Shown: positions 2,230 through 32,000, counted from the stretch's first letter. The stretch is 32,000 nt of DNA from Candidatus Saccharimonadota bacterium (GCF_000185985.2 NC_014909.2:690001-722000); one strand, 5' to 3'. The notes: a model not told the origin generated them from the sequence alone. Numbers and translations are program-made.

Positions 2230-3481
2230 ACAGTGTTAATGATTAATTGTTTGGTAGAAAAAGATACAGTAATAGTGTATATTTTATATAAAAATTATTG
2301 TTTATGAAATATGGGTTATAATTAAAAGGTTGGTTGTATTGTTTCAATTCGGTATAAATAAATTTATAGTAAATAAAATGATAGGGTGAAAGAAATAAAT
2401 CTTATTACTTTCATAATATATTATTATATATAGAACTTTAAAATTATCAGCATATTATTAATAAAGAACAATTATTCGACAACTGTATGCAAGTAATAGC
2501 GTTAATTAATTCATTTAAATTTGTTTTCATATTTTTTATTGGGTACTTTTTTATTAGAGAAAAAAATTAGTTTGATGAAAATAAAATGATGCAATATAGG
2601 CTTTTATAGAAAATGATATACGTTAAAAATACAGTAGCAATTTTATTCATAATAGAAGATATGATTCTTTATAATATTATGTAGTATGATTTAAATATAA
2701 CAAAAATTTTCAGATTCGTCTTTTTATTGATATTATTTGTATTAAAAAATAAGGTAGTGAAATTCATAATAAATAATTTAGGTTTAAATTGCATAATTTT
2801 TATGTAAATAATTAATTGGGTATGATGATCTTGAATTAACATATGAATTATTAAAATTAGTTCTCTATTATTATTATATAATTTAAATTTAAAAGTAATT
2901 TGTATCATGGATGATACGTAGTAATTTGTAAGATTGTGATAAAATTGATTATCAATAAATAACGTTATTAAATTTGTTAAATTTAATAAACTGAAAAAAA
3001 TTTATTAGAATCTATTGAAATCATACTTCTTTAGAATAAAAAATTTTGGTTTTATTTATGTATTATATATGTCGCAAGGGGTAATAATTCAGGGATGGAG
3101 TATTTCTCTATAGTAAACGTAGTTTGTAGCAGATAATGTATAATGTATTTTTTTGTATTGGGAAAACATTATTATAAATCACATACACAAGCTTATCGTA
3201 GGGAGGTTGATGTGAATTCAATAGACATACATATATGATTCATATCATATATGTTACGTACGTTATTTTCTATTCCGATTTTTAGATAATAAGTAGTGTT
3301 TTGTCATCAAACATAGTATAACAGATATATATTGATATGTAGAATGAATAAAAATCGTCATATTATTCAATATAATGATGATTATCATAGGAATTTAATT
3401 AAAAAACTTCAATTCAAAAGTATTTAAAGAATTGAAACATTATTGAAGTAATAATTTTAATTTGTTAATGTAAATATTATA

Positions 3482-4718: not shown

Positions 4719-4760
4719 CTCAAACATACAAACCTAATTTTTTAGATTTGTATGTTTGAG
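4719..4760. repeat. Perfect 14-bp inverted repeat (extended hairpin) in the waaC-waaA spacer
   Basis: ctcaaacatacaaa (4719-4732) is the exact reverse complement of tttgtatgtttgag (4747-4760). An inner ctaa/ttag pair (4734-4737 / 4742-4745) leaves a tttt loop. Confidence 0.85.
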
Positions 4761-9197: not shown

Positions 9198-9768
9198 GGA
9201 ATATAGGATAAGTATATGAATTTTTATTATTATTTTTTAATTTTTTTAATTAAAGGAGTAGAAATCCTAAAATTTTTTTTATTTTTTTACATCAAATAAT
9301 ATAAAAATATTTAAATTTTTTTTAAAAAAAATGTGTTTAATAAGAAAAATTTCTAATTTTTATTAATTTTTTATTATTAAATAATAAAAAAAATCACAAA
9401 ATATAAAAAATATATCAAAAAATCCCTTTTTTTTCATTTTTCTTTTTCCAGTTAGGAATATTTCAAATTCTGTAAAACTTCGATAGAATAAAAATCATTC
9501 GTGATTTATATCAATACTCATATATTTTTTATATTGAATTATAAGTTAGGAGGTAAAATTTTTAACAATGATTTTTTGATTAGTATTCGAGCTATTTATA
9601 GCTCTAAAAACGAATTGTCTAAAATTACTTATTGTCTGTACAACATAGAGAGAGTAGTAATTTTCTTGTTTTAGAGTTTCTGGGATGTTTTTGTTTATAC
9701 AGTAACTACACTGTTATTACAAATACAGATCTTATGATTATTTTTAATGCAATTAGAGATATATAATT

Positions 9769-10203
9769 ATGAATAGATTAACAGATATTTCAAATATGGT
9801 AGAATCCTTATCTCGAGTTTATCATCGTCTTCGTAAAGAGGTAAATGGTCAGTTAATTAATGAAGGATTGTCTATGTCCAAAATGAAAATACTCCATCTC
9901 ATCACAACTGGTCAAATTAGTGCAACAGATATTAAGAACTATATGGGGTTTTCATCTAGAACTGTGGTTACAGTTTTAGATGCGTTGGAGAAAGATGAAA
10001 TGTTACGACGACAACAAAGTCTTACAGATAGACGAGTAAAATATGTACATATTACAGAGAAAGGAAGAGATAAATTACGTATAGCTAAAAATACTCATAA
10101 TATAATTTTAGATCGTATATTTTCTCCTTTATCGGAGGTACAACTTAAAAATTTTTATGAAGTATGTCATTTGCTGGAAATTCAACAAAAAACATCTAGA
10201 TAA
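9769..10203 (+). CDS. MarR/SlyA-family winged-helix transcriptional regulator
   Basis: 144-aa ORF. The core LSMSKMKILHLITTGQISATDIKNYMGFSSRTVVTVLDALEKDEMLRRQQSLTDRRVKYVHITEKGRDKL fits the MarR pattern: HTH, then LxxLEkxGlvxR, then the DRR wing, then lTekG. No orthologue at this position in E. coli (dinD-yicG-ligB there). Confidence 0.75.
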   Translation: MNRLTDISNMVESLSRVYHRLRKEVNGQLINEGLSMSKMKILHLITTGQISATDIKNYMGFSSRTVVTVLDALEKDEMLRRQQSLTDRRVKYVHITEKGRDKLRIAKNTHNIILDRIFSPLSEVQLKNFYEVCHLLEIQQKTSR

Positions 10204-10335
10204 ATTTTTATTATTATTTTATTTTATGAACAAAAGTAATATGTTAAACTGATCAGATATTTAAGATTCATATTATGAGTTACTAAGATAGTAGTAACGT
10301 GTTATTTTAAGTTGGTAAATTTTTAAAAATGTAAA

Positions 10336-10390
10336 ATCATGCACCTTCCCCCGGGGAAATTTCTTATTTCCCCGGGGGAAGGTGCATGAT
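10336..10390. repeat. 55-bp GC-rich perfect palindrome (25-bp arms, 5-nt spacer) between the MarR-family gene and gmk
   Basis: atcatgcaccttcccccggggaaat (10336-10360), spacer ttctt, then atttccccgggggaaggtgcatgat (10366-10390). The arms are exact reverse complements, 14/25 G+C, each containing cccggg. Confidence 0.95.
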
Positions 10391-10430
10391 AGTAATCATT
10401 TAATTAAAATAGTAGAATGTTTTAGGGTAT

Positions 10431-11099
10431 ATGAAAAAATGTATAGGTTCATTATGTGCTGTATCTGCTCCCAGTGGTACAGGAAAATCGACATTAATAT
10501 GTGCTTTACAAAAGAAAAATTGTTTATTATTTGATACTCAGTTATCAATTTCTTATACTACTCGTAAGCGCCGTTTTGGAGAAAAACATGGGGTAGATTA
10601 CTATTTTATTTCATTTAAAAAATTTAAGTTTATGATTGATAATAATATGTTTTTTGAGTATGCAAAAATTTTTAATAATTATTATGGAACTGGAAAAAAT
10701 AAAATAGAATCTATGTTAAATGCTGGAACGCATATCATTTTAGATATTGATTGGAAAGGAGTACAGCAAATCAAAAATAGAGTAACTAATTTTTTTACTA
10801 TTTTTATTCTTCCACCTTCAAAAGAAGAATTAGAGCTAAGATTACGTCTTAGGAGAAAAGATACAAATGAAATTATTAGTAATAGAATGAAACATGCTGT
10901 CAACGACATATGTCATTTCAAAGAGTATGATTACATCATTATAAATGATGATTTTAACATTGCATTATTTCATTTACAATCGATTATTTTATCCGAACAG
11001 CTACGCTTAGTATATCAGAAACAACAACATAATGATTTAATTATTGATTTATTGTCTGAAAATTATTGTAAAATAAAGCGAACCTATAGTATAGAATGA
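10431..11099 (+). CDS. gmk: Guanylate kinase
   Basis: 222-aa ORF. [12 protein letters not shown] (P-loop), [45 protein letters not shown] and [10 protein letters not shown] match E. coli Gmk ([67 protein letters not shown]). Confidence 0.92.
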   Translation: [222 protein letters not shown]

Positions 11100-11132: not shown

Positions 11133-11309
11133 ATGAATGAAACAACTATAAAGCAATCTTTAAAAACAGAGATAAAAAATAGATTTAATTTGATATTAGT
11201 AGCATCCAGACGAGCAAGACAAATTCAAAATGAAGAAAGAGAGAATTGTTTTGTTAAACAGAATACAAGTAAATGTACTGTTCGTGCTTTTAAAGAAATG
11301 GAACTATAA
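11133..11309 (+). CDS. rpoZ: RNA polymerase omega subunit (short, 58 aa)
   Basis: Too short for the ORF track. ATG 11133 to TAA 11307-11309 translates MNETTIKQSLKTEIKNRFNLILVASRRARQIQNEERENCFVKQNTSKCTVRAFKEMEL. The core IKNRFNLILVASRRARQIQ matches E. coli omega IGNRFDLVLVAARRARQMQ. It starts 34 nt after gmk, as in the gmk-rpoZ arrangement. Confidence 0.8.
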   Translation: MNETTIKQSLKTEIKNRFNLILVASRRARQIQNEERENCFVKQNTSKCTVRAFKEMEL

Positions 11310-12353
11310 TACATATCTTGCATACAAAATAAAAGTCTTTCTTTGATTTAAATTTATCAATTATTATCATTAATTTATGTATTAATTATATATCAAGAAG
11401 GACGGGGTATGCTAAAACAAGCAAGGTATTTTATAAAATTTTTTATATAGCAGAATATAGAATTAAATGGGTGAATTTTATTATATTTGAATACTATAAT
11501 TTAAAAAATTATTATATTGGGGGGTCGTTTATTTTTTGTATCCTGGGTTTAGGTAGAATTTAATAATGAATCTTATATATCATATTGATATATACTATCA
11601 AAGTATGTAATTGTTCACGTATACATTCAAAATATAAATAAAGTTATTGTGTTTTTGTGTTTACCGGTATAAGTAAAATAGTATACTTTCTATTTTTAAT
11701 AGTGGATAATCAATTCTTCATATTGTAGTGTGTGTAAGTATTGCAGTGCTCATTTGAACTTGATATTTTTGAATAAGTGTTAATAAATAACTAGGAAAGA
11801 AAAGTTTCGAATCAGAGTACTGTTGAAATAAGAATCATAATTTCATGATGCTTAAGGTATCAGTATTATTTAGTTTTATAAATAATAAAAAAATATCAAT
11901 AAATTTTGACAAGGATTTATATTAATATTCAATATATTTATATTACTTCAATTATTTAAATAAATTTTTTTATAAAAAATGAAAAATATCACGATAAATA
12001 AGTACATTACAATTGATTATGATATTTTAAGTAAATTTTAGAAATCAATAACATCATTGAACACTACATTAAAACTAAATTAAAAATTATTATTAATAAG
12101 TCGTTGATAAAATCTCCATAAGTATTCAATGTAAAAAGAAATTAGCTACATATAACTTTTTATTATTTGCGTTAAAAATTGAATTTTATTTTTTATAAAA
12201 GAATTTTATTTATTGAATAGAAGATTTTTAATAAATAAATTGTAGTTTTTTAATTTAATATTATAAGATAGAATATAGCAATTATTGTAGTATTTATATA
12301 CTCTATATACTATAGTAGTAATAATTTTTTAAACATTGGTATTATTTTCTTGA

Positions 12354-15206
12354 TTAATGGGCTTGTTCCCAATTTTTTCCAACTCCAATATCTACTTTTA
12401 AAGGAACATTTAAAATAAAACATTCTTCCATAAGTTTTCTAATTTGTTTTACTGCAATATCTACAAATGTATTATTTACTTCAAAAACTAATTCATCATG
12501 TACTTGCATAATCATGTGAACAGGGATATTATCTGTTTGTAACCAAGAATCAATAGATATCATTGCTCTTTTAATGATATCTGCAGCGCTTCCTTGCATA
12601 GGAGCATTAATTGCTGATCTTTCGGCTCCTTTTTTTTGGGATATATTAGAAGAGTAAATATCTGGTAAATATAATTTACGGCCATCTAAAGTGGATACGT
12701 ATCCATTTTTTTTAGCATAATCCTTAATATATTGCATATATTGCATAACTCCAGGATAGCGTTGAAAATATCGGTCTACATATTTTTGAGCTTCTTGACA
12801 TGTTACTGATAATTGTTTTGATAATCCAAAAGCAGTCATACCATAAATTAAACCAAAATTAACAGTTTTTGCGCGCTGTCTTTGCTCTCCTGTCACTAAA
12901 TGTAATGACGTAACAAAGATTTCAGAGGCTGTTGTGGTATGAATGTCTTTTTCTTCAAGAAAATCATTAATTAATTTGAGATCGCGAGATAAATGAGCCA
13001 TAATTCTTAATTCTATTTGAGAGTAATCCGCTGATATAATTAAAGAATTTTCTGGAGCAATAAAGGCTTGCCGTATTTTTCTTCCGTCATAATTGCGATT
13101 GGGAATATTTTGAAGATTAGGATTTGTGGAAGAGAGTCGTCCAGTGGAAGTTCGAGTTTGATTATATGAAGTATGTATACGATTTGACTTTTTATTGATC
13201 ATAGATATTAATTTATTAGTATATGTTGATTTTAATTTAGATAAACTTCTATATTTTAAAATAATCTTGGGTATAGAGTGTTTTTTGGATAATTTTTTTA
13301 GTACTTCTTCGCTAGTAGAAGGAGCTCCATGAGGAGTTTTTTTAAAAATTGGTAATTTTTCTTGATTATATAAGATTTCTTGTAATTGTTTGGGAGAATC
13401 TAAATTAAATGAAGACCCTGTTAATTGATATGCTTGTGTTTTTAAATTGTTTAGCTGAGAATTTAGTTTTATTGAATGAGAATATAAAAATTTTTTATCT
13501 ATTAATACTCCATAATCTTCAATTCTAGAAAGAACGGATATTAATGGTATTTCTATATTTATAAATATTTTTTTTAATTCGTTATGTTGTTTTATTTCTG
13601 TCCATAAAATTTGATGTAAATTTGATATGGCATATATTAATTGCGTTGAACATGATGATTCTAATTGTATATCTCTAATATTTTTTTTAATAAGATATTT
13701 ATTATTATTATAGATTTGTTGGAATTTAAAAATATGATCTAATATTGTAGTTTTATTTAAAAAACGTTTTATATTTTGATAATTAGAAGTGCCATATAAT
13801 ACATATAATTCTAGTATTACATCAAAAATTGGTCCAGATAAATGTATATTATGTTGTTTTAATAAAGAAAAAATAAATTTCATATTATGTCCAATTTTTT
13901 TTATTTTTATATTTTCTAAAATTGGTTTCAAAATAGATAATACTTCTGTTAGATTTAAATACCATTGGTACGTATCGTTATTATTATCTATATTTAAAGT
14001 ATGTTGAATATTGATTGGTATATATGCGTTATGCATGGAATTCATAGTGTATGTAGATATACATATTCCAATGATATTAGGAGTAAAAATATCAAAATTA
14101 TTTGAATATATATTCAAGATAAAACAGTGGTGAGTGTTATTTTGTTTTATCCAATTTGTTAGTGATGAAATATTAGATATAATGTCGTTATTATTACTAG
14201 ATGGGAATGATGGATAATAGTTACATGTATGTGTTATAGTATTTGAAATAAGAGAGGTGTTGCTTAGTTGAGAATTTTGAGTTGATGATTTTTTAGTATT
14301 TTTGTATTTTTTTAACCATGTACCTGCCTGTAGCTCTGATACCCAAGTATTAAATTCGTATTTTTTAAATAATAAAAATAATTGTTGGGAATCAATATTT
14401 TGTATTAATAATTTATAGTCAGATTGGTTTAAAGGAACATCGATTTTCACAGTTGCTAATTTATAGGAAAGGAAGGCTAATTTTTTATTTTTAATTAATG
14501 TATTTTTTATCGATTGGGAATTTCGAAGATTTAAAATGGATATTTTATGTAAGTTTTGATATAGTGTTTGTAGGTTACCGATGTTGTTTAATAAAATTTT
14601 AGCGTTTTTTATGCCTATTCCTGGTACTCCAGGAATATTATCGGAACGATCTCCAATTAATGCTAAATAATCTGCTATTAGATTAGGTGATACCCCAAAT
14701 TTTTTTTTTATTTCTAAAGAGTCCAATATGATATTAGACATAGTATTTATTAAAATAATGTTAGAAGATACAATTTGAGCCATGTCTTTATCTCCAGTGC
14801 TAATTAACACTGTTTTGTTTTTTAGTTGAGCATAAAAATTAGATAATGTTGCGATTACATCATCTGCTTCTACATAAGGTACGCTTAGCGCGGTAATTCC
14901 CATTGCTTTTATTATTGTATTTAGAGGTGTAATCTGAATACATAAATCTTCGGGCATTTGAGGTCGATTCGATTTATATTGTTTAAATAAATCATTACGA
15001 AATGTTTTACCGGGGGAGTCAAATACAATACCCATATGAATAGGTCGATATTTTATTAATAAGCTTCTAATCATGTTTATAACTCCATATATAACCCAAA
15101 CAGGATATCCTGTGCTTGTTGTTAAAGGTGGATATGCATGATATGCTCGATATATATAAAAAGATCCATCTATTAAAATAATTGGATTATCTATAATATT
15201 AGTCAT
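12354..15206 (-). CDS. polA: DNA polymerase I
   Basis: 950-aa ORF colinear with E. coli PolA (928 aa). 5'-nuclease blocks: NPIILIDGSFYIYRAYHA, GDKDMAQ, DNIPGVPGIG. Polymerase motifs: SADYSQIELRIMAHLS, RAKTVNFGLIYGM, QVHDELVFE. The central 3'-5' exonuclease domain is recognisable but degenerate (see findings). Confidence 0.95.
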   Translation of the reverse strand: MTNIIDNPIILIDGSFYIYRAYHAYPPLTTSTGYPVWVIYGVINMIRSLLIKYRPIHMGIVFDSPGKTFRNDLFKQYKSNRPQMPEDLCIQITPLNTIIKAMGITALSVPYVEADDVIATLSNFYAQLKNKTVLISTGDKDMAQIVSSNIILINTMSNIILDSLEIKKKFGVSPNLIADYLALIGDRSDNIPGVPGIGIKNAKILLNNIGNLQTLYQNLHKISILNLRNSQSIKNTLIKNKKLAFLSYKLATVKIDVPLNQSDYKLLIQNIDSQQLFLLFKKYEFNTWVSELQAGTWLKKYKNTKKSSTQNSQLSNTSLISNTITHTCNYYPSFPSSNNNDIISNISSLTNWIKQNNTHHCFILNIYSNNFDIFTPNIIGICISTYTMNSMHNAYIPINIQHTLNIDNNNDTYQWYLNLTEVLSILKPILENIKIKKIGHNMKFIFSLLKQHNIHLSGPIFDVILELYVLYGTSNYQNIKRFLNKTTILDHIFKFQQIYNNNKYLIKKNIRDIQLESSCSTQLIYAISNLHQILWTEIKQHNELKKIFINIEIPLISVLSRIEDYGVLIDKKFLYSHSIKLNSQLNNLKTQAYQLTGSSFNLDSPKQLQEILYNQEKLPIFKKTPHGAPSTSEEVLKKLSKKHSIPKIILKYRSLSKLKSTYTNKLISMINKKSNRIHTSYNQTRTSTGRLSSTNPNLQNIPNRNYDGRKIRQAFIAPENSLIISADYSQIELRIMAHLSRDLKLINDFLEEKDIHTTTASEIFVTSLHLVTGEQRQRAKTVNFGLIYGMTAFGLSKQLSVTCQEAQKYVDRYFQRYPGVMQYMQYIKDYAKKNGYVSTLDGRKLYLPDIYSSNISQKKGAERSAINAPMQGSAADIIKRAMISIDSWLQTDNIPVHMIMQVHDELVFEVNNTFVDIAVKQIRKLMEECFILNVPLKVDIGVGKNWEQAH

Positions 15207-15363
15207 AAAATATTTTATTCATATGGTTTCTTATATGAAACAAATAGGAGGAATTTTATGATAATTAAGTTATCATATTTATTGTTAAAACAGAAGAATA
15301 AATATGATAAAATATGATAGTTTGTTTTAATATATGTTTTTGTTTAAAATTAGCCATATTATT

Positions 15364-19434: not shown

Positions 19435-20041
19435 TATATTTGCTCTAATTTTTTAAACGTTAATAAAAAATTTTGTTATTATTTTGACATATTGAATATT
19501 TTGATAAAATCACATGTTGGTTATCCCATGATAAATAAAAAGTAAGTTTTATATTTATTAGTAATAGTGAATTATTGTAATATTATACATTAATAATGAG
19601 TTTTCGTTTTTATTTATAAAGATATTATTATTATAATTTATTTTATGAAAGATGTGATGTTTAAGTAATAAAATTGTACGTATTATATCGTATTGTCAAA
19701 TACGTGATTTTATTATAATTTTTCTATATGTTGTTTTTTTGATAAATATTATTGGTCAATTTATTATTGACAATATTAATTATAATTGACTAGTTAAATT
19801 AAAGAACTTAAGTATTTTGATTTGATCACTATTCTCTTACCAAGGAGGAATAGTGATCAAATATTTATTTGTTTTGTAAAGTTGAATATTTATTAAATTT
19901 AAGTTATCGAGTTTTTGTTTAAGCAAGTAACATTTTTATTTGTTTATTTATTAGATGTTGAGCAGTTGTATGTATTGTATTGTTTAGGAAAGTAATGCGA
20001 TTCACGTGTTTAATAAGTATTATTAAATCAGTGCTAATTTT
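19435..20041 (-). pseudogene. ubiJ: Possible fully eroded ubiJ (yigP) remnant
   Basis: The ubiE-ubiB spacer is 607 bp, and E. coli ubiJ (~200 codons) sits exactly here. No ORF >=60 aa. The frame right after the ubiE stop reads ...HVNRITFLNNTIHTTAQHLINKQIKMLLA*, only weakly reminiscent of the UbiJ N-terminus (..GIESLLNTFLYRSPALK..). Size and position are the main evidence. Confidence 0.25.
19821..19861. repeat. Perfect 14-bp inverted repeat inside the ubiE-ubiB spacer
   Basis: tttgatcactattc (19821-19834) is the exact reverse complement of gaatagtgatcaaa (19848-19861). The 13-nt loop tcttaccaaggag overlaps an AAGGAGG (19842-19848) that runs into the first base of the right arm. Confidence 0.85.
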
Positions 20042-31848: not shown

Positions 31849-31857
31849 GGGGGGGGG
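31849..31857. repeat. G9 homopolymer tract
   Basis: Nine consecutive G on the plus strand (gtgggggggggttg), ~50 nt beyond the 3' end of the minus-strand tRNA-Ile. It is the longest G/C run in the window. Confidence 0.95.
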
Positions 31858-31907
31858 TTGAATAATATTATAATGATATACCTTATTTTATGTTTATTTA
31901 TTTATAA

Positions 31908-31980
31908 TAGGCCTGAGTGGATTTGAACCACCGTCCTCACCCTTATCAGGGGTGCGCTCTAACCGCTGAGCTACAAGCCT
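31908..31980 (-). tRNA. ileT: tRNA-Ile (anticodon GAU)
   Basis: The reverse complement reads AGGCTTGTAGCTCAGCGGTTAGAGCGCACCCCTGATAAGGGTGAGGACGGTGGTTCAAATCCACTCAGGCCTA. It folds as a full cloverleaf: acceptor AGGCTTG/CAGGCCT, D stem GCTC/GAGC, anticodon stem CACCC/GGGTG with loop CTGATAA, T arm GGTGG-TTCAAAT-CCACT. Nearly identical to the E. coli rRNA-spacer tRNA-Ile. CCA is not encoded. Confidence 0.93.
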
Positions 31981-32000
31981 AATTCGTAAATTTTAGTTTT

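Follow-up and report, generated by a model that had tools for sequence, protein, structure and literature searches.

A GC-rich palindrome between a MarR-family regulator gene and gmk in Blochmannia: a hairpin of conserved position and mirrored arm changes, with a possible role at a transcript boundary

Large palindromes are a known feature of Blochmannia genomes: the published counts are 10 for B. vafer, 20 for B. floridanus and 6 for B. pennsylvanicus, almost all of them intergenic (Williams & Wernegreen 2010, BMC Genomics 11:687, PMC3017870). The definition required arms of at least 30 nt with no more than 3 mismatches, separated by 20 nt at most. The authors suggested a role in the control of transcription or in mRNA stability; in their view, palindromes not under selection would be expected to decay. 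The palindromes also disrupted Sanger sequencing and assembly of the B. vafer genome and were closed by hand, the closures being confirmed at 470-626x coverage (PMC3017870). A second related system is template switching, which perfects quasi-palindromes in E. coli (PMC7202029) and is also proposed as a process that generates RNA hairpins and keeps them intact (Monttinen & Loytynoja 2022, PMC8794818). Intrinsic terminators place a stable, G+C-containing stem-loop downstream of a gene, followed by a U-rich tract on the strand of that gene. REP-type extragenic palindromes protect upstream mRNA from 3′ exonucleases in E. coli and Salmonella.

The window studied here, a single stretch of 32,000 nt with a G+C content of 25.2%, carries a palindrome at 10336-10390, between the stop of a MarR-family regulator gene (10203) and the start of gmk (10431). 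A first-pass annotation had described perfect 25-bp arms, each with 14/25 G+C, around the loop ttctt, and the arms are indeed exact reverse complements, forming a 25-bp stem with 14 G-C pairs. Its description of a GC-rich core in an AT-rich genome also stands, although the genome figure of ~27% exceeds the G+C of the window, and its placement between the two genes is right apart from the distances: 133 and 41 bp become 132 nt from the regulator stop to the palindrome and 40 nt from the palindrome to the gmk ATG. Outward of the perfect core, weaker complementarity continues to 10323/10403, and inside each arm there is a nested near-palindrome, TTCCCC(C/G)GGGGAA. The features are as follows.

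9769-10203, plus strand: MarR-family winged-helix regulator, 144 aa, Pfam MarR match 2.4e-10; BVAF_617 in the B. vafer ortholog table
10323-10335, no strand assigned: decayed outer extension of the left arm; its minus-strand reading is the T-rich tail TTTACATTTTTAA
10336-10360, no strand assigned: left arm of the perfect palindrome (ATCATGCACCTTCCCCCGGGGAAAT), 25 nt
10346-10358, no strand assigned: nested near-palindrome TTCCCCCGGGGAA of the left arm, in the lineage-specific GC-rich core
10361-10365, no strand assigned: loop TTCTT, the sole asymmetric part of the palindrome
10366-10390, no strand assigned: right arm of the perfect palindrome, exact reverse complement of the left arm
10368-10380, no strand assigned: nested near-palindrome TTCCCCGGGGGAA of the right arm, its centre 22 bp from that in the left arm
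10391-10403, no strand assigned: decayed outer extension of the right arm (AGTAATCATTTAA), giving 38-nt arms, 84% complementary
10431-11099, plus strand: gmk (guanylate kinase), TIGR03263 match 1e-64
11133-11309, plus strand: rpoZ, next after gmk, TIGR00690 match

Extended to 30 nt, the arms contain exactly 3 mismatches, all within the 5 positions next outward of the 25 perfect pairs, so that with its 5-nt gap the palindrome reaches the published definition only at its limit. Judged by its form and intergenic location, it is one lineage's version within the class of Blochmannia palindromes already reported: a long intergenic inverted repeat with a short gap, found in the same group of symbionts and, very likely, in the same genome. 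However, the earlier study gave counts and lengths only. Neither the palindrome at 10336-10390 and its GC-rich core, nor a conserved position amid sequence turnover, nor mirrored evolution of the arms is described there.

Genes in the window run in the order hldD, rfaC, waaA, dut, yicC, regulator, gmk, rpoZ, polA, dsbA, with glnA missing between rpoZ and polA. This order agrees with the B. vafer ortholog table (BVAF_615 to BVAF_621) but not with B. floridanus or B. pennsylvanicus (PMC3017870); the nearest relatives of the regulator are Blochmannia proteins. Together these observations identify the source genome as a Blochmannia, probably B. vafer or a very close relative. Between rpoZ and polA lies a 1-kb non-coding stretch (11310-12353), where glnA is encoded in B. 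floridanus (L001), B. vicinus (L003) and two further Blochmannia assemblies (L004, L006); the stretch agrees with a glnA loss already published for B. vafer. In another assembly (L005) and in Colobopsis-associated Blochmannia (L011), polA directly follows rpoZ, as in the window. Over the first 1 kb of the window the GC skew is below zero, and past that point it is positive, hldD starting at 1255. The yibN-hldD spacer has been put forward as the replication origin in both B. vafer and B. floridanus (PMC3268670); the skew at 1-1250 matches that origin, and the window is thus essentially the '31.5-kb region' of the same report. Cumulative GC skew does not turn at the palindrome, and the earlier suggestion of a cruciform-forming recombination site found no support.

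The palindrome is real and statistically extreme. By itself the hairpin folds as RNA at about -51 kcal/mol. With 131 nt of context the values were -56.7 kcal/mol on the plus strand (z -9.9) and -53.5 kcal/mol on the minus strand (z -11.0), and 0/200 shuffles folded as well; as DNA the palindrome gave -33.8 kcal/mol (z -11.9). The longest perfect stem in 100 block shuffles of the window was 13 bp, and no other perfect stem of more than 15 bp occurs in the 32 kb. The plus-strand tail past the stem (AGTAATCATTT / AGUAAUCAU) has 3 U in its first 9 nt and no T-tract, and the minus-strand tail (TTTACATTTTT) is T-rich, both as first annotated. In a search for terminators the palindrome was the sole strong terminator-like match in the window, called on the minus strand, on which the nearest gene is polA at 12354; canonical intrinsic terminators were nearly absent from the 32 kb. 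Rfam returned no match at the gathering threshold, a relaxed scan giving generic long hairpins (e.g. miRNA precursors) well below thresholds. Further perfect hairpins, with 14-15-bp stems and 13-14-nt loops, were seen at 4719-4760, 15270-15310 and 19820-19862, in same-strand gene spacers (rfaC-waaA, dsbA-polA and between two minus-strand genes).

The spacer was compared with those of B. floridanus (L001), B. vicinus (L003), the Blochmannia assemblies L004-L008 and L023, Colobopsis-associated Blochmannia (L011), Wigglesworthia (L010) and Sodalis (L009). The order regulator-gmk-rpoZ is kept in every locus that reaches far enough. Moreover, a long inverted repeat is found in the regulator-gmk spacer of every Camponotus-type Blochmannia examined, with the following forms outside the window.

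L001 (B. floridanus), 3052-3103: 26-bp perfect arms, no loop
L003 (B. vicinus): 19-nt arms with one G-T pair, 63 nt between the arms
L004: 23-bp perfect arms, 4-nt loop
L005: 20-bp perfect arms, 9-nt loop
L006: 14-bp perfect arms, 27-nt loop
L007: 28-bp perfect arms, 15-nt loop
L008: 23-bp perfect arms, 10-nt loop
L023, 1472-1497: contig end falls inside the regulator-gmk repeat

Across lineages these repeats lie 62-132 nt past the regulator stop and 32-66 nt before the gmk ATG. Their inner sequence is different in every lineage: the GC-rich core occurs only in the window, and none of the related loci contains CCCCGGGG. The window hairpin is also the most stable, those of the orthologues ranging from -20 to -45 kcal/mol. 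Alignment of whole spacers with MAFFT was uninformative (mean column identity 39%), the spacer outside the palindrome being unalignable. Further afield, the Sodalis spacer folded no better than shuffles (z -1.2 and -0.04), the Wigglesworthia spacer held only an 11-nt, 91%-complementary repeat, and a comparable hairpin was not found in the spacer of Colobopsis-associated Blochmannia. The long palindrome therefore arose within Blochmannia and has been kept since; it is not indispensable, as Colobopsis-associated Blochmannia and Sodalis do without one. In L004, yicC is seemingly split into fragments of 63 and 84 aa (1154-1677) and may be a pseudogene.

The outer arms are where the lineages can be related to each other. 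TAACGT/ACGTTA is common to the arms of L004, L006, L007 and L008 (...ACAAYAANTAACGT / ACGTTANTTRTTGT...), and a by-eye alignment matches the left edge of the window palindrome (AAATG-TAAAATCATGCAC) to that of L008 (AAATGATATAATCATAACAAC). By this alignment the window palindrome shares descent with those of the other lineages through its outer arms. Compensatory changes were looked for in relatives, as the first-pass annotation had proposed. Among 14 homologous outer pairs in L004, L006, L007 and L008, 5 have changed two-sidedly and 0 one-sidedly, with 100% of positions paired; this covariation was reached in 0/500 shuffles, and slid registers were only 25-57% paired. Between L004 and L006, 13/14 outer-arm positions are retained. 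Over seven lineages, 159 stem pairs include 0 mismatches and 0 G-T pairs, and pairing ends abruptly at the arm ends. G-U pairs gave no assignment to a strand, since perfect arms read alike on both strands and the outer flanks are uninformative owing to base composition; the single G-T pair of L003 would be G-U on the plus strand.

The lack of G-T among 159 pairs, the abrupt boundaries and the exclusively two-sided changes point to a process acting on DNA. Selection on RNA pairing seems insufficient, as it would tolerate G-U pairs and occasional mismatches in stems so stable. Perfect arms, abrupt ends and mirrored changes with no intermediates are the pattern expected of a hairpin maintained by template switching, and the comparison suggests that this is what the spacers contain. 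As in the template-switch hotspots described elsewhere, an arm copied from its partner would yield multi-base 'compensatory' changes at a stroke (PMC7202029; PMC8794818). The present case differs in that the mechanism is deduced from a comparison of endosymbionts, and its stems far exceed in length the rRNA helices studied there. The first-pass annotation had offered the alternatives of a young element or one under selection. Selection may indeed account for its retention, but a third option, DNA-level correction templated by the hairpin, was omitted and is the one we favour for its perfection.

From E. coli genetics, the absence of SbcCD, mismatch repair and RecA should permit long palindromes and favour template-switch events. 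The Blochmannia ortholog table lists rho, nusA, rnc, pnp, sbcB and recBCD, and sbcC, sbcD, recA, mutS, recJ and xseA are not in it (PMC3017870). Given these missing genes, the palindromes might persist as a selectively neutral by-product of DNA replication, template switching in A+T-rich spacers creating repeats and then correcting them, with no function in RNA or DNA. The G-T-free stems, abrupt borders and two-sided changes would follow from such a process, as would loops and inner stems that differ in every lineage. A+T-only palindromes without obvious signal in the neighbouring yicC-regulator spacer are likewise consistent with it. They form a second palindrome of conserved position, long and perfect in the other lineages (arms 15-31 bp), and occur in the same loci as follows.

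Window, 9272-9394: degenerate palindrome, 59-nt arms, 71% complementary
L001, 2026-2132: yicC-regulator palindrome
L003, 1983-2045: yicC-regulator palindrome
L005, 2030-2079: yicC-regulator palindrome
L007, 2036-2095: yicC-regulator palindrome
L008, 2070-2112: yicC-regulator palindrome

However, a homologous palindrome has persisted at one site despite high indel rates and despite gmk proteins that are only 59-72% identical, and its outer arm was retained while the rest of the spacer became unalignable. Correction would keep the arms alike; it gives no protection from deletion. Persistence of the element in a spacer otherwise randomised therefore argues for a function, and we consider a purely neutral origin rather unlikely.

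The explanation that we prefer, with about even confidence, is a transcribed stem-loop at the boundary between the regulator and gmk-rpoZ, its symmetry kept by hairpin-templated replication errors. From the observed structure, conserved position, sequence turnover and mirrored changes, we infer that the palindrome is transcribed, that it terminates or protects a transcript, and that its arms are corrected against each other. Transcription from the regulator promoter would run into a very stable stem-loop, which would form the 3′ end of the regulator transcript and act as a stop or pause site for RNA polymerase, as a barrier to 3′ exonucleases, or as both. Expression of the regulator would thereby be kept apart from that of the housekeeping genes gmk and rpoZ, which would start from a promoter of their own at or just past the right arm. 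The symmetry is probably not kept base by base through selection. Instead, a change in one arm would be copied to the other or erased when the replicating strand briefly templates on the hairpin, a quasi-palindrome template switch that would be possible in a genome without SbcCD, mismatch repair and RecA.

Several observations support the boundary reading. The yicC palindromes follow the upstream stop (44-183 nt past it in 4/5 loci, ~470 nt in L003) and lie hundreds of nt, roughly 390-520, before the regulator ATG. In Sodalis, a consensus gmk promoter (TTGACA, 17-nt spacer, TATAAT) is found about 43 nt before the ATG, which maps to the right edge of the Blochmannia palindrome or just after it. 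The palindrome is, in addition, the only strong terminator-like structure in the window. A terminator or insulator had been among the roles first suggested and is the best supported of them, but the plus strand lacks the U-tract of an intrinsic terminator. This counts against the reading, as do the T-rich tail on the minus strand, where nothing obvious needs terminating, and a position nearer to gmk than to the regulator stop. Nor is hairpin termination clearly the normal mode in this genome, as canonical terminators are scarce and rho is retained, its rate of 0.011 being among the lowest in the B. vafer evolutionary-rates table (PMC3017870). A literature search gave no usable transcript maps for Blochmannia.

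The window palindrome shares with intrinsic terminators a stable G+C-containing stem-loop downstream of a gene, and the orthologues share with bidirectional terminators arms rich in A at the 5′ side and in T at the 3′ side. At 25 bp and so low a folding energy, though, the window stem is far beyond typical terminators, and termination needs no perfect pairing free of G-U. Like a REP-type palindrome, an intergenic stem-loop past a gene could stabilise the upstream message, and pnp is kept in Blochmannia. REP elements, however, are a repeated family with a consensus, whereas the palindrome here is single copy in the available sequence.

Under the boundary reading the GC-rich core would be a lineage-specific replacement of the inner stem, adding stability without being required for the existence of the element. 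The core makes up the inner stem, which is different in each lineage; a search of the rest of the window for 9-mers of the palindrome found none that could mark a donor. Without its central 23 nt (CGGGGAAATTTCTTATTTCCCCG) the palindrome would be perfect and lack a loop, as in B. floridanus. The core may, speculatively, have arisen by duplication or by template switching at the hairpin tip.

A competing view places the hairpin in the 5′ leader of gmk-rpoZ, with a promoter upstream of or overlapping the left arm and the stem acting in the 5′ UTR as a 5′-terminal stabiliser or an RNase III processing site. An uninterrupted duplex of 20-28 bp is an RNase III-type substrate (~20 bp of uninterrupted dsRNA being needed); the window stem has 25 bp, the orthologues have 20-28 bp in 5/6 lineages, and rnc is retained (PMC3017870). 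The fairly constrained distance to the gmk ATG (32-66 nt) also fits a leader element. Extended -10-like motifs are present at the left edge or upstream of it: TGTAAAAT in the window (10330-10337), TGATATAAT in L008, and TGATATACT in both L001 and L007. Motifs of this kind were seen in 7/9 spacers against 3.3 expected from shuffles, but they are common in 75% A+T DNA and some shuffles reach 8/9. Downstream of the palindrome, too, every lineage has -10 candidates that are just as good, so gmk transcription may start on either side of it. The Sodalis promoter at or past the right edge, and the distance of the yicC palindromes from the next gene start, do not suit a leader. A leader structure controlling gmk-rpoZ, as first suggested, stays a live rival through the upstream motifs and is weakened by their downstream equals; we judge it rather unlikely, about as probable as the neutral reading.

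The regulator gene bears on the two other roles proposed for the palindrome. Its protein is 88-95% identical in amino acids among Blochmannia lineages, which makes it far better conserved than Gmk (59-72%), and still 74-85% identical in Sodalis, Wigglesworthia and Colobopsis-associated Blochmannia, and it is always linked to gmk-rpoZ, in genomes stripped of most regulators. By these comparisons the regulator is vertically inherited. An operator for the adjacent MarR-family dimer would be symmetrical and adjoin the regulator gene, as the palindrome does, and the centres of its nested TTCCCCNGGGGAA motifs are 22 bp, or about two helical turns, from each other. A site bound by so conserved a protein should, however, be conserved with its DNA-binding domain and hold its half-sites at fixed spacing. 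The cores share nothing while the regulator is conserved, CCCCGGGG being confined to the window, and the gap between the outer half-motifs TAACGT and ACGTTA ranges from 8 to about 41 nt, unlike a fixed dimer footprint. The operator reading was rejected on these grounds and has very little chance of being correct. Upstream of the regulator ATG, the leader at 9748-9771 (TTAGAGATATATAATTATG) is nearly invariant in Blochmannia loci and recognisable in Sodalis. About 40 nt upstream, several lineages have a weak ATCAAA...TTTGAT inverted repeat, not clearly present in the window, which is a possible autoregulatory site. Neither the leader nor this repeat was related to the gmk palindromes when compared with them.

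The palindrome could also derive, as a copy or a footprint, from a palindromic element of REP or MITE type that is repeated or mobile, GC-rich palindromic repeats having spread in some A+T-rich genomes, or it could be an artefact, palindromes having broken the B. vafer assembly before closure by hand. A search for further copies, recommended in the first-pass annotation, found no second one in the window or in the collections scanned. The palindrome is single copy in the 32-kb window. The 18-mer ACCTTCCCCCGGGGAAAT gave 11 single matches, about the chance expectation, in unrelated genomes and none in Blochmannia among 185,579 species genomes (a collection evidently without this genome), and the twin-core pattern was not found in metagenome and viral collections. 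Relatives do not show an empty site; they carry a homologous palindrome, recognisable by its outer arms, and only the inner core is new. Mobile delivery of the regulator, which the first annotation had considered, was rejected in view of vertical inheritance, gene order being kept in Sodalis, Wigglesworthia and all Blochmannia loci examined. An artefact is unlikely, as comparable palindromes stand at this site in independently assembled genomes of other lineages, and the closures of gaps in the published genome had deep coverage. Taken together, we regard a mobile or artefactual origin as highly doubtful. Short-read contigs do break in repeats (L023 in its palindrome, L006 beginning within (AATT)n at 1-28), echoing the assembly breaks reported for B. 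vafer.

A more speculative reading, which we consider improbable, is that these are self-correcting DNA palindromes evolving by a treadmill, in which the inner stem and loop would be rewritten again and again by template switching, in the window into a GC-rich core, while the outer arms decay. They would be retained since the extruded DNA hairpin itself acts, e.g. as a priming or pausing site, in a genome without dnaA, recA and sbcCD. If true, this would be a natural case of concerted palindrome evolution with a function at the level of DNA, not of an RNA terminator.

For the single palindrome little is changed, as it belongs to a known Blochmannia class and has an unusual GC-rich core. The comparative pattern is more useful, in that symbiont lineages, though deeply diverged, keep a hairpin at a single gene boundary. 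It would offer a clean natural example of a stem kept by DNA-level copying and not by stepwise compensatory substitution. It also provides a simple setting in which to ask how transcript boundaries are marked in tiny A+T-rich genomes that have few regulators and almost no canonical terminators.

Two minor observations were made alongside. In a free-living metagenome relative whose regulator is 72% identical (L024/L025), a hairpin TTCCTGC-ATACG-GCAGGAA at 1926-1958 begins directly after the regulator stop and has a T-run 7 nt past it; this looks like an ordinary terminator-like structure. Lastly, a run of nine G at 31849-31857, the longest G/C homopolymer in this 25% G+C window, lies ~50 nt from tRNA-Ile(GAT) (31907-31981, minus strand).
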